Made by a program: the position numbers and the translations under genes. Below, one piece after another: positions 157 through 3,197 of a DNA stretch of 64,000 bases; within the stretch, counting starts at the first letter, position 1, and every line of letters starts with the position of its first letter. The stretch is from a virus. The notes beneath the pieces are model-generated. The model was not told where the DNA came from. It was given only the letters and a program-made list of their open reading frames with translations, and ran no database searches. Location of the stretch: the IMG/VR virus record IMGVR_UViG_3300003323_001187; one strand, 5' to 3'.

Positions 157-180
157 GGTAATTATATACAATCCTGACCC
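157..180 (+). repeat. left terminal inverted repeat GGTAATTATATACAATCCTGACCC
   Basis: Exact reverse complement of 3174-3197; preceded by a T run. Confidence 0.9.
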
Positions 181-182
181 AA

Positions 183-509
183 CTACGGAATGTTGTAAAA
201 TGCTTTGAAATCACCGTCCGGTATTTGAGATTCAACAGGAAAGAAATCGTTGTCTGAATCTCGAAGCATATCTATAATCCTTATGTTATTGGTCAAGATA
301 AAAAATGTTTCTGAATTGTCAGGATTCATTTTACTAAATCCCTTAACGTCCTCTCTACTCATTTTGAGAACAGAAGCCGAATGAGATAATTTATCATGCA
401 ACTTCATGTCTTTCCCTTGTTTGAAGCACTGATCGAACGTCAATGTGATGGCCCAGCATGACCACTTGTTTTCATTAAAGGATTTTCGATATTGATCAAC
501 AAGACTCAT
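183..509 (-). CDS. hypothetical protein (cargo of IR-bounded element)
   Basis: 108-aa ORF; overlaps the next ORF by 14 nt, suggesting translational coupling. Confidence 0.5.
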   Translation of the reverse strand: MSLVDQYRKSFNENKWSCWAITLTFDQCFKQGKDMKLHDKLSHSASVLKMSREDVKGFSKMNPDNSETFFILTNNIRIIDMLRDSDNDFFPVESQIPDGDFKAFYNIP

Positions 510-771
510 TCTCTTTTTTCATGTTTTCGTATTCAATGTACAGTTCCTTGTATCTGGCAACAGCGAATGAATGCACCATTCCAAATAAGTTTCCTGTGTG
601 ACCTATCGGAGCGTTGCTTTCCCATCGTCCGTCAAAGTACATTTTTATACGAATACCTGACTCATTTGTTTCATTGTTGAATAATTCAATGCTTATGAAT
701 CGTTCTGAAGCCGCTTTCATTAATTCGGCAGCGAACTGTTCCGGTGTAAGTGTCTCTTTCTTCGTTTCCAT
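496..771 (-). CDS. hypothetical protein (cargo of IR-bounded element)
   Basis: 91-aa ORF with natural-looking composition, coupled to 183..509. Confidence 0.5.
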   Translation of the reverse strand: METKKETLTPEQFAAELMKAASERFISIELFNNETNESGIRIKMYFDGRWESNAPIGHTGNLFGMVHSFAVARYKELYIEYENMKKENESC

Positions 772-832
772 ATCATTTTGATTTCTGTTACATTTGTTGT
801 TGAATTACATATCAGGCGTAAAGCCTTGTTTG

Positions 833-965
833 CGCGTCAGAAACGACCAAACTTCTAATAGCAAAGCAAACAAGACAACGCAGCTTTTACCTCGACTTAT
901 CGAATCGATATGGGCGTGGGCTGTTGTCTTGTACTTTGCTATGGCTTTGGTCGGCCTCTGACGCG
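833..965. repeat. long imperfect inverted repeat (about 130-nt hairpin, four 8-10 bp helices)
   Basis: The 833-884 arm pairs with the 919-965 arm through CGCGTCAGA, CGACCAAA, ATAGCAAAG and ACAAGACAAC segments. Lies in the ORF-free gap between divergent ORFs. Confidence 0.7.
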
Positions 966-1021
966 ATGCAGGATTTTCGGTTCCACGCCCGCGTATTTTT
1001 AATCGTCACCGATCGGAGCCG

Positions 1022-1321
1022 GTGGAGACACTATTCAGCTTACTCATGAGGACTCAAATAGCCAAAATCCTGATCGCTGCTGCAGTTGGCATTATATCCT
1101 GGCAAGTGGCCGGGAATCTCACCAGAACCAATAAATACTACCTGCTTATAGGTAATAAGACAGAGGTTCCCGAATCTTTTTATGTTGATACATCTGCGTA
1201 CCGGTATCCAATAGAGCTGGAGTTCAATCAAAGCTATGGCATCCCGTCTGGATCCATTGCTTTCGCGTTAACGCTGATTGGCTTTTTTGTCCCGGGAATA
1301 CTTCGCAGGGAAAAGGAATAA
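1022..1321 (+). CDS. small membrane protein (two hydrophobic helices)
   Basis: 99-aa ORF with GTG start; hydrophobic segments IAKILIAAAVGIISW and IAFALTLIGFFVPGIL. Confidence 0.4.
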   Translation: METLFSLLMRTQIAKILIAAAVGIISWQVAGNLTRTNKYYLLIGNKTEVPESFYVDTSAYRYPIELEFNQSYGIPSGSIAFALTLIGFFVPGILRREKE

Positions 1322-1391
1322 AGAGGGAAGACTGCGAATCTTCCCTCCGATCCTTCCGTATAATCATGTAAACTCTCAAACCCACATAATT

Positions 1392-1607
1392 ATGACAGAA
1401 AGACAAATGAAAAATGCGATTGAAATCATTCGTGTAGAAGTCGATCTTATCAAAGAGCTTCTTAACCCAGACCAAAGAATTTTCTTCGATCAACAAATAG
1501 ATGGTAAATATCGGGCTTTCATAGCTGAACGGCCTGACATCAATGAAGAAGAGCGCTTGTCTGTTTACGAAATGTTTGAATCTGTGAAAATGAACAATAT
1601 TCGATAG
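1392..1607 (+). CDS. hypothetical protein
   Basis: Internal ATG (MTERQMKN...) of track ORF 1278..1607; 71 aa. The upstream extension overlaps the previous ORF and looks non-coding. Confidence 0.4.
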   Translation: MTERQMKNAIEIIRVEVDLIKELLNPDQRIFFDQQIDGKYRAFIAERPDINEEERLSVYEMFESVKMNNIR

Positions 1608-1612
1608 CCATT

Positions 1613-1792
1613 TTACTTCAGGGCTGAAGTGGTGAGATTGTCAGGAACAACTATTGTGCACTTGTTGTCGGCAAGATGCCTCACGTTGTTACAAATTCGA
1701 ATTATTGCTCCGGGCGTATAGCCATTCAAAAGGCCTAAGATTTCAAGGGCCTTTTGTCTTTCCATTTCTTTACGAGTTTCTTCCTCTTCCAT
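1613..1792 (-). CDS. hypothetical protein (59 aa, below track cutoff)
   Basis: Own translation: MEEEETRKEMERQKALEILGLLNGYTPGAIIRICNNVRHLADNKCTIVVPDNLTTSALK. Sits 7 nt downstream of the transposase stop. Confidence 0.4.
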   Translation of the reverse strand: MEEEETRKEMERQKALEILGLLNGYTPGAIIRICNNVRHLADNKCTIVVPDNLTTSALK

Positions 1793-1798
1793 GATGAT

Positions 1799-2737
1799 TT
1801 AATTACTGATCAGCCTTTTACACGGAAGGCTTTTACCGTATGCGTTACTGATGGTATGGTTTAGTCGTTCTGTTTCTGTTTCGAATCGTGTGTTATATCG
1901 GAACGCAAACTCGTCTGCGTACTTCTGCAGGTGTTTGCGGCTTGTCTTGTGGTACGTCCCTATTATTCCGCGTTTAAGGTGTGACCAAAAGCCTTCAAGC
2001 GTGTTTGTGGTCACATCCCCTTCGGCGTAGTATTGCCCTGCACCATGGTTCACGAAATTGTGATTGTATGTTTCGTTCAATCTATGGTACGCTGACCATT
2101 CATCTGTCATGAGTTTAGATCCTGGCTGGATGAATGTGTAGATGTATGGCTGAATTTCTTTTCGAGCAGTGCTCGATGTTACGAAGCAATTAACGCTTTT
2201 TGTTTCCCGGCATAACATTCCAAGTATTGGCGTTTTATCCTTGAATGATCGGCCCTGCGAATTTTTAACCTTCTTATCCTTGTGCCTGTTCTTATTCTTG
2301 CCCCCAACGAATGTTTCGTCAAGTTCAATAGTCCCGTTCAGCTGGTTAACTATGGGTTCTCCGAACGCTTCCCGGATCTTGTGTAGCATCGTCCATGCTG
2401 TTTTCTGTGTGACACCGATGTCTTTTCCCATCTGAATAGAGCTGATTCCTTTCTTGTGAGAAGAGAATAGGTACATTGCTGCAATCCACTTCTGCAATGG
2501 AAGGTTGGAGCCGGAAAATATGCTGTTAGTTTTTACAGTGAACTTTTTCATGCATCGATTATCAGAACATTTGTAGGTTTTGCCATCAGAGAATTTGTAT
2601 GGACTGTTTTTCCTACAGTGGAGGCATCTGACTCCATCTGGCCAGCGAATGGCTTCAAGGTACTCAATGCATTTTTGTTCTGTATTGAAGTGTAGTAGTA
2701 AGTCTATGACCGATTTGAAGTTCAGGTCCGTTTCCAT
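1799..2737 (-). CDS. IS1595-family (ISXO2-like) DDE transposase
   Basis: N-terminal zinc ribbon RWPDGVRCLHC...YKCSDNRC. Catalytic-region motifs ELDETFVGG, MTDEWSAY, TNTLEGFWSHLKR and EFAFRYNTR. Confidence 0.9.
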   Translation of the reverse strand: METDLNFKSVIDLLLHFNTEQKCIEYLEAIRWPDGVRCLHCRKNSPYKFSDGKTYKCSDNRCMKKFTVKTNSIFSGSNLPLQKWIAAMYLFSSHKKGISSIQMGKDIGVTQKTAWTMLHKIREAFGEPIVNQLNGTIELDETFVGGKNKNRHKDKKVKNSQGRSFKDKTPILGMLCRETKSVNCFVTSSTARKEIQPYIYTFIQPGSKLMTDEWSAYHRLNETYNHNFVNHGAGQYYAEGDVTTNTLEGFWSHLKRGIIGTYHKTSRKHLQKYADEFAFRYNTRFETETERLNHTISNAYGKSLPCKRLISN

Positions 2738-2843
2738 GTTTTATTGGTGTTGTTTAAAAAACAGCCTCCGAGTTTTCAACAATGCGAAACCCCGGAGGCA
2801 TTTCACAGTACAAGAAATTATATCTCACCAAAACTTCTTTACT

Positions 2844-3053
2844 ATGAAAAAGACAAATTCGCTTTCAAAAATCATTTCTGCACAAGTGGTAATGGCTTCT
2901 ATTGTTGATATGCTTTCGCCCGAGCAACGAAAAGAATTAAACGAGAATATTCAGAATAGAATAGGGGCTATATCTTATGACGGCCAATTGGATGACCACA
3001 CAAAGTCAGAGGTCCTAAGCGAGGTTGCTTTGATGATGTCAAAGCTGAAATAA
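2844..3053 (+). CDS. hypothetical protein
   Basis: Internal ATG (MKKTNSLSK...) of track ORF 2580..3053; 69 aa with natural composition throughout. Confidence 0.4.
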   Translation: MKKTNSLSKIISAQVVMASIVDMLSPEQRKELNENIQNRIGAISYDGQLDDHTKSEVLSEVALMMSKLK

Positions 3054-3159
3054 GCTCCTCCTGGTATCGATCTAAGAGAGCTTTTTGGTTCTCTGTTAGT
3101 TGTTCTTCGTCTATACTGAAATCGGCTGATTGTTCTTGTGGTTTTTCTTTTTCTTTCAT
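2968..3159 (-). CDS. hypothetical acidic protein (uncertain)
   Basis: 63-aa ORF starting 14 nt inside the right IR. The first half looks coding; the 3' part overlaps 2844..3053 on the opposite strand. Confidence 0.3.
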   Translation of the reverse strand: MKEKEKPQEQSADFSIDEEQLTENQKALLDRYQEELISALTSSKQPRLGPLTLCGHPIGRHKI

Positions 3160-3173
3160 GATGTTTTTGGGCT

Positions 3174-3197
3174 GGGTCAGGATTGTATATAATTACC
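3174..3197 (-). repeat. right terminal inverted repeat
   Basis: GGGTCAGGATTGTATATAATTACC is the exact reverse complement of 157-180; followed by TTTTT. Confidence 0.9.

Follow-up and report, generated by a model that had tools for sequence, protein, structure and literature searches.

Whether a 3-kb segment inserted between two early genes of a phage is a mobile element, and what the small genes between its perfect terminal repeats contribute, is the question raised by positions 157–3197 of IMGVR_UViG_3300003323_001187, a virus record of IMG/VR analysed here as a stretch of 64,000 nucleotides (the window). With a length of 3,041 bp, the segment constitutes a complete IS1595-family transposon and very probably represents a passenger-carrying element with an RNA-led cargo slot, which may have moved between a Bacteroidota host and a phage. 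An initial annotation, prepared from the nucleotide sequence alone, had put it forward as the best candidate for a self-contained, hitherto undescribed accessory module. A self-contained IS1595 transposon with passengers was indeed found, but the cargo-bearing IS1595 type as such has already been described.

The ends of the element are marked by the 24-mer GGTAATTATATACAATCCTGACCC, of which the window contains two exact copies (157–180, plus strand; 3174–3197, minus strand). This number did not rise when up to three mismatches were allowed, and none of 100 shuffles yielded a match, in agreement with the earlier observation that the motif does not recur. With two copies only, it does not behave as a repeated regulatory motif of the phage, the possibility against which the initial annotation had asked to check. 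A repeat finder extended the inverted repeat to 25 nt, starting with GG and complementary at 25 of 25 positions, with the transposase-distal end at 157..181 (plus strand; GGTAATTATATACAATCCTGACCCA) and the transposase-proximal end at 3173..3197 (minus strand); the pair is thus as perfect as claimed, but does not stop sharply at 24 bp. Without 157–3197, the stop codon at 3216 and the ATG at 132 would be separated by about 42 nt, close to the normal intergenic gap of about 45 bp that had been predicted, and the insertion site is this spacer of about 42 nt separating two early phage genes. A possible placement in the ISNwi1 subgroup, the ends of which read ggnnatTAT and which has 8-bp repeats and cargo variants of 1.75–4.75 kb, is suggested by GGTAATTAT, which fits this pattern; literature searches on ISNwi1 and ISPna2 returned nothing specific.

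Between the repeats lies an intact transposase gene (1799..2737, minus strand) of the ISXO2/IS1595 type, as had been recognized from its motifs. The 312-amino acid (aa) product combines an N-terminal zinc ribbon with a DDE domain: DDE_Tnp_IS1595 (PF12762) matched over its whole profile (1–153 of 153; E 1e-46) and Zn_ribbon_IS1595 (PF12760) over residues 19–63 (E 7e-11). The motifs ELDETF, MTDEW and TLEGFWSHLK are all present, with the lysine seven residues past the glutamate. An N-terminal zinc ribbon is found in every group of the IS1595 family except IS1016 (PMC8101967). Catalytic domain, zinc ribbon and terminal repeats, three of the features by which membership in the family is judged, are all present in the window element.

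Evidence for mobility comes from relatives. Four other sites were found to carry the same 24-nt ends, or ends changed at one or two positions, each together with a perfect 8-bp target duplication. The nearest transposase, an 'IS1595 family transposase' with 86 % identity, belongs to a 2,643-bp element with identical 24-nt repeats and the duplication TTATTTTA, located in a Fluviicola sp. metagenome-assembled genome (MAG; L024) on a contig of 725 kb; in a repeat scan of a genome collection comprising one genome per species, this MAG was the sole match. The element of L030 measures 3,302 bp (duplication AAAAATAA), that of L026/L027 2,843 bp (duplication AAAGAAAA, within an array of immunity genes) and that of L109 3,257 bp (duplication TTAAATAT). 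The left repeat of the latter equals that of the window and the right one differs by one base; the element interrupts an AAA_11/AAA_12 helicase gene adjoining a DNA methylase. The two remnants of this helicase gene (L109, 1809–5117 and 8446–9117) correspond to AAA_11/AAA_30 and AAA_12 parts, and the insertion may represent transposon inactivation of a defence-like locus. The repeats are identical or nearly so even though the transposases share only 67–86 % identity, as would be anticipated for sites bound by the transposase.

More distant relatives (40–56 % transposase identity), taken from viral and metagenome collections, have termini following the pattern GGyAnnTAyATAC. After removal of duplicates the clade comprises 57 distinct repeat-bounded copies of 1.6–5.9 kb, 41 of which are flanked by perfect 8-bp duplications (93 % A+T); these duplication-verified copies span 2,192–5,943 bp. 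Among the 57, no copy close to the size of a simple insertion sequence (IS) of about 1 kb was detected, the shortest one measuring 1.6 kb, and every bounded copy carries cargo. Exact empty sites exist for the element of L001 (phage contigs L150 and L149) and for that of L005 (12 contigs of 67–100 kb), both of which reside in gut phage contigs. Two such pairs, L001/L150 and L005/L151, were compared in detail; flank identity was 91–97 % and the overlap exactly 8 bp. A further relative is located 2 kb away from a terminase gene. Because of the 8-bp duplications and the exact empty sites in relatives, it can be stated that this IS1595 clade transposes and that phage genomes are among its targets. 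The initial annotation had suggested looking for precisely these two signatures and had regarded an unchanged gene order in close relatives, lacking both the repeats and empty-site polymorphism, as damaging to its proposal; both signatures were found in relatives, not for the window copy.

DNA inversion is conceivable, in principle, between perfect inverted repeats separated by 3 kb. That the 25-nt repeats serve as DNA inversion sites, or as a regulatory motif of the phage, rather than as transposon ends is nevertheless extremely improbable: the motif is unique to this pair within the 64-kb window, the same ends border elements with 8-bp duplications at unrelated chromosomal sites, no invertase is encoded inside the segment, and the segment has one and the same orientation in both samples from which it is known.

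The passengers comprise at least eight small open reading frames (ORFs) on both strands, as reported initially. Five of these, with products of 59, 71, 91, 91 and 108 aa (one of the 91-aa products with two transmembrane segments), have positional homologues in related elements. The final gene before the distal repeat, orfB (183..509, minus strand, 108 aa), overlaps with its start the end of orfA (496..771, minus strand, 91 aa), to which it is translationally coupled; the coupling of two ORFs within 183–771 had been noticed before, and both have counterparts in L030 (80 % identity for orfB; 63 % for orfA, at the same position). Counterparts in L030 also exist for the 71-aa ORF (1392..1607, plus strand; 68 % identity, same position) and for the 59-aa ORF located directly 3' of the transposase gene (1613..1792, minus strand; 70 % identity), and most relatives have a small ORF at the position of the latter. 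Hence, four passenger genes are common to the two elements at 63–80 % identity, and orfB (80 %) is more similar between them than is the transposase (70 %). The fifth passenger gene (1046..1321, plus strand, 91 aa) is preceded by the RNA described below and codes for the protein with two predicted transmembrane segments (2-TM protein), a 57 % identical homologue of which is encoded in the Fluviicola element. In L030, L109 and L026 the same slot is filled by signal-peptide proteins of 146–157 aa. Followed in the sense of the transposase gene, the order of features is the same in the copies of the window and of Fluviicola: repeat, transposase, ORF of about 55 aa, ORF of about 68 aa on the other strand, 2-TM protein of about 95 aa, hairpin, two coupled ORFs, repeat. 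Iterative hidden Markov model searches with the window cargo against all ORFs of the fetched loci retrieved homologues in L030 and L024 only. Five conserved ORFs and an RNA thus accompany the transposase, agreeing with the definition of a transporter IS by genes within the repeats that do not serve transposition.

The cargo of relatives is diverse and includes MmeI-type restriction-modification enzymes, Bro-N and KilA-N proteins, a lipocalin-like lipoprotein and zinc-ribbon membrane proteins. A complete MmeI-type enzyme (919–971 aa) is encoded on the minus strand in L002 (127–2886, element coordinates) and L086 (51–2966); the ends of these two elements differ from those of the window (GGCAATGACTAACG...). 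A gut subfamily (L001, L045, L046, L060, L068, L069, L071, L092) has backbones that are 94–99 % identical, interrupted by variable slots at element coordinates 1500–1914 and 2228 to about 3010. The slots contain genes for a zinc-ribbon membrane protein, a secreted 212-aa protein and TM2-like multi-pass proteins. In this subfamily the variable ORFs have their start codons precisely where the conserved blocks stop; the second of these blocks consists of the RNA and its spacer.

This RNA is, on this evidence, the most distinctive part of the element. Where the initial annotation had listed a 130-nt hairpin as one of several passengers, a rod-shaped structured RNA of about 190 nt ending in a T run extends over 809..999 on the plus strand; the hairpin is real (minimum free energy −86 kcal/mol, z = −4.5), but longer than supposed. 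Searches of Rfam 15 gave no match in window 1–4000 at E ≤ 1, nor, at E ≤ 0.1, any match to the corresponding hairpins from six relatives. The RNA is retained at the same position, with compensatory changes, in every element sharing the ends of the window element, and in other subfamilies nearly every element has a single hairpin that stands out by its stability and is built in the same way. In this design, a 5' AGCGT pairs with the 3' tail to form a closing helix, followed by a long stem that is interrupted and includes a conserved internal loop (GAAATCTG... / ...CAGAACC) and an apical stem-loop CTCAyGC-N-GCGTGGG; the 3' end is formed by CCCACGCC and the T run. A second type of rod has GACGTAG/CTACGTC in the equivalent places.

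A covariance model built from seven distant elements, the window being excluded, matched 809–999 of the window (plus strand) over its full length (37 bits, E 7e-5) and gave 46 forward-strand hits in 100 sources. In the 35-sequence alignment, which was fitted to the structure of the model and thereby favours that structure, 89.7 % of the cells were in standard pairs as compared to 68 % in shuffled alignments (none of 500 reached the observed value) and about 42 % in slid ones; cells with double changes numbered 253 as compared to 87 (shuffled) and 23–59 (slid). One 8-bp helix is paired in 98 % of cases and has seven covarying positions. Compensatory pairs were also apparent in alignments produced by MAFFT only. 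From 13 divergent RNAs aligned by MAFFT, RNAalifold retrieved a single helix because the stems were misaligned, a problem resolved by the model from seven closer sequences. The strand ending in the T run folds better than its complement by 1–28 kcal/mol (7–28 kcal/mol in all but one of 21 loci), an asymmetry that implies G-U pairs and hence RNA; likewise, model scores on the reverse strand were far weaker where both strands were scored (137–167 versus 28–30 bits). The hairpin is accordingly likely to be an RNA structure under selection.

A role of the hairpin at the level of DNA, as a cruciform, an attC-like site for cargo swaps, a replication origin or a nested miniature transposon, could be considered since it borders the variable cargo region and is found beside different recombinases in phage contigs, e.g., large serine recombinases. 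Such a role is improbable in view of the consistent strand asymmetry in folding and model score with its G-U pairs, the promoter box located upstream (see below), and the presence of a single copy per element and not per cassette. An integron cassette with attC site had been tried as a candidate and was rejected: each element has a single hairpin and encodes no tyrosine integrase, and the strand bias is strong and of the RNA type. Also rejected was a small peptide encoded inside the hairpin or a type I toxin-antitoxin system, as neither start codon nor length is conserved. The ATG at the apex is absent from L018, L098, L094, L080 and the gut subfamily, and the length of the ORF varies between 23 and 45 aa.

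Within the rod, an internal GGCGTGGG is complementary to a neighbouring segment and, fully, to the 3' CCCACGCC. This alternative complementarity has been preserved through sequence changes in several lineages (GGTGTGGG/CTCACACC, GCGTGAA/TTCACGC, AAGTGGG/CCCACTT, GACGTAG/CTACGTC). The folds open to GGCGTGGG are mutually exclusive, which suggests a switch, and since the alternative pairings covary, the rod RNA possibly operates in a riboswitch-like manner.

The surroundings of the RNA are equally regular. TACATTTG (789..796, plus strand), 13 nt before the RNA, matches TAnnTTTG, the consensus of the Bacteroidota −7 promoter box; TAnnTTTG occurs at most 70 nt upstream in 25 of 35 RNA copies as compared to 6 % of random windows. 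On the 3' side, the spacer contains a putative small stem-loop CACCG-ATCGGAGC-CGGTG (1005..1029, plus strand), read from the sequence, and most other copies likewise show a small hairpin in the spacer. In all 35 aligned copies, an ORF of at least 50 aa with the same orientation as the RNA begins 31–53 nt 3' of it, and about 33 of the 35 downstream products have a signal peptide, a lipobox or a transmembrane segment. In the window, the ATG of the 2-TM gene at 1046 is located 46 nt past the RNA end. The RNA family is thus conserved, strand-specific and situated directly before variable envelope-protein genes.

How the RNA acts is less certain. The chances that it acts in cis on the downstream cargo gene appear about even. 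A stand-alone small RNA, terminated at the T run and acting in trans, is a possible but not a favoured alternative to a cis leader. It would account for the T run directly following the closing helix, in the manner of an intrinsic terminator, for the closed rod of about 190 nt and for the four short segments with covarying alternative complementarity. It would not account for the tightly held distance between RNA and start codon in 35 of 35 copies or for the conserved block of the gut subfamily, which reaches the start codon, and the rod was not flagged by a simple terminator scan.

The RNA also occurs outside these transposons. Scanning viral contigs for its pattern yielded 38 loci, 17 of which were confirmed by the model, and an IS1595-type transposase was nearby in 3 of these 17. 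The 14 viral contigs with the RNA and no such transposase in the fetched locus are L134 (RNA at 9115–9326), L129 (108–319), L120 (1990–2197), L141 (10058–10265), L139 (4799–5013), L114 (2531–2743), L113, L125, L145, L123, L132, L119, L116 and L127. The transposase-free RNA follows the gene of a large serine recombinase in some contigs and tail-fibre-like genes in others, and a downstream ORF for a variable lipoprotein, a secreted or another small protein was seen in 11 of the 14. Comparison of a prophage-type copy with GenBank phages by BLAST gave only one weak, unannotated hit, a literature search for a Bacteroides RNA motif returned nothing specific, and no RNA of such kind was found described for the IS1595 family. 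Tentatively, and with considerable doubt, the RNA may be viewed as an undescribed, widespread class of regulatory leaders that doubles as a recombination handle of about 240 nt for cargo swaps; such a class would span IS1595-type transposons, serine-integrase prophages and tail-fibre-adjacent loci and control accessory envelope-protein genes. In L037, a Flavo-1 RNA (RF01705, 65.5 bits; 10541–10606, minus strand) is located about 3.4 kb outside the transposon and is unrelated to the rod RNA.

Taken as a passenger transposon with an RNA-led cargo slot, the element may function as follows. The zinc-ribbon DDE transposase would bind both 25-nt terminal repeats, and insertion into A+T-rich DNA would proceed by an 8-bp staggered cut, which was shown for relatives and is assumed for the window copy. 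The accessory set would comprise the 59-aa and 71-aa ORFs, the orfA/orfB pair and an expression unit on the opposite strand, the latter consisting of a Bacteroidota-type promoter box, the rod RNA, the spacer hairpin and the small 2-TM gene. The RNA would represent the structured 5' leader of the slot, the gene of which is exchanged among related elements. Presumably, this leader is transcribed from its own promoter together with the cargo gene, and its conservation may aid cargo exchange through recombination.

Several observations have to be weighed against this reading, the first of which concern the history of the window copy itself. Its flanks (TATTTTTT, 149..156, on the left; TTTTTCAT, 3198–3205, on the right) are both T runs, which had been pointed out as a possible target duplication; they agree at 5 of 8 bases, and an 8-bp duplication is not formed. 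Neither an empty site nor a second copy was found for the phage of the window when the transposase and two flank proteins were looked up by exact protein match, which returned only contigs with the same insertion (L022, same sequence; L023, 99.94 % identical). No match was obtained for window 1–5000 in a DNA search against 50,697 GenBank phages, nor for the exact 24-mer or for relatives of the flanking 142-aa protein in IMG/VR. In view of the absent duplication and the exclusively insertion-bearing contigs, transposition of the window copy itself is unproven. A true element may therefore have reached this site by other routes than simple transposition, such as recombination between copies, an adjacent deletion or T-run slippage, or its flanks may have been rearranged later, and it may no longer move in the phage; we consider this conceivable, with a probability well below one half. 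Besides the missing duplication, present in 41 of 57 relatives, such a course is in keeping with the lack of one in the other 16 (about a quarter) and with the fixation of the insertion, in the same orientation, in two samples 99.94 % identical. It is further in keeping with the reciprocal flanks of the gut-subfamily copies L056 (TTATTTTA/TTTTTTAA) and L059 (TTTTTTAA/TTATTTTA), which point to recombination between two copies in one genome. The 25 of 25 matching repeat positions and the full-length transposase with its catalytic motifs are unlike decay, and the shared 5-nt T run could be a degraded duplication. Such a history would be compatible with the identity of the element as a passenger-carrying IS1595 transposon, and the window copy is presumably active or was so formerly.

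The remaining counterpoints concern the passengers and the RNA. Scans of all window cargo ORFs against Pfam and PHROG gave none above threshold, and searches by family, database or fold revealed no assignable function for the cargo proteins. Only three clusters in 5.8 billion proteins contain orfB, and the 2-TM protein is likewise a near-orphan. The AlphaFold2 model of the orfB product (pLDDT 64) had no significant fold match in the PDB by Foldseek (best E 0.057, TM-score ≤ 0.47) and at most suggests a generic ferredoxin-like fold without assignment. The RNA was undetected in some clade members (the MmeI carriers L002 and L086 as well as L043), and the pair counts have to be read with the fitted alignment in mind. 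The promoter, the ends of the RNA and its cis-acting role are all inferred.

Other features of the element are of minor relevance. A terminator-like stem-loop with a T-rich tail, detected by pattern scan only, is located between the 2-TM gene and the 71-aa ORF (1322..1348, minus strand) and would end minus-strand transcripts arriving from the transposase side. The interval from the transposase gene to the proximal repeat includes about 330 bp (2840..3170) that are absent from the elements of L024 and L026, where the alignment has a gap; the overlapping ORFs within it (2844–3053, plus strand; 2968–3159, minus strand) have no homologues in related elements. A 76-aa ORF (2975–3205, minus strand) starts with an ATG just outside the element (3203–3205), runs inward through the terminal repeat and is probably a by-product of the insertion and not a gene.

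The carrier is a real phage, as genes for the large terminase subunit, the portal protein and a sliding clamp are present in the window, and it is a soil or rhizosphere phage of Bacteroidota with a genome of about 72 kb. An early block on the minus strand (3.2–21 kb) is followed by structural genes on the plus strand from 21.5 kb onward, so that the initial claim of flanking genes located exclusively on the minus strand applies to the early block only. The latter includes a 197-aa protein (3918–4511, minus strand) with weak matches to NinG/Rap junction endonuclease (E 6.5e-5) and HNH endonuclease (E 1.8e-4). The identical 24-nt ends and the 86 % identical transposase shared with a Fluviicola chromosome copy suggest a Fluviicola-like flavobacterium as host and movement of the element between host and phage; this link is the only host clue for an otherwise unmatched soil/root phage.

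Phage genomes are regarded as poor in insertion sequences. A clade of cargo-carrying IS1595 elements that enters phages as well as Bacteroidota chromosomes gives accessory genes a direct way of passing between host and virus. Moreover, the RNA marks the start of variable membrane-protein or lipoprotein genes in dozens of mobile elements, including common ones of the human gut. Should it be a regulatory leader, it would offer a handle to find and study 'moron'-type cargo in Bacteroidota, and its role is readily testable in cultured gut Bacteroides carrying the GGTAACTATATACCAGTTTGCA subfamily.

Among known systems, hok-type mRNAs resemble the rod RNA in closing their 5' end on the 3' tail, and the competing pairings of GGCGTGGG and CCCACGCC covary. 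In contrast to hok-type mRNAs, the rod lacks a conserved start codon or reading frame, and the proteins it leads are lipoproteins or membrane proteins of 60–250 aa and not short toxins. Phage morons are autonomous promoter-gene-terminator units in phage genomes. The unit of the window likewise consists of a small accessory envelope gene with its own putative promoter, oriented against the surrounding early operon, and in other phage contigs the same unit of RNA and gene adjoins integrase and tail-fibre genes. Unlike morons, the window unit rides inside a transposon and has a long conserved structured leader foreign to the moron concept. Transposases of insertion sequences in phage genomes are also known from the IS30-bounded 'IScream' phages, in which IS30 copies flank the whole prophage and were proposed to mobilise it (PMC12823448), whereas the window phage holds a single internal passenger of the IS1595 type. 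The element itself belongs with the 'transporter ISs' with passenger genes, which Siguier, Gagnevin and Chandler introduced for the IS1595 family in 2009 (cited in PMC3129680). The window element likewise carries passenger genes, and its size of 3 kb, considered unusual by the initial annotation, is not so for a family on which transporter ISs were defined and a clade all bounded copies of which carry cargo. It differs from other transporter ISs in belonging to a clade in which every bounded copy found carries cargo and most copies have a structured RNA before a variable envelope-protein gene, and in residing in a phage genome. Its newness seems to lie in the RNA-led cargo slot and not in the type of element.

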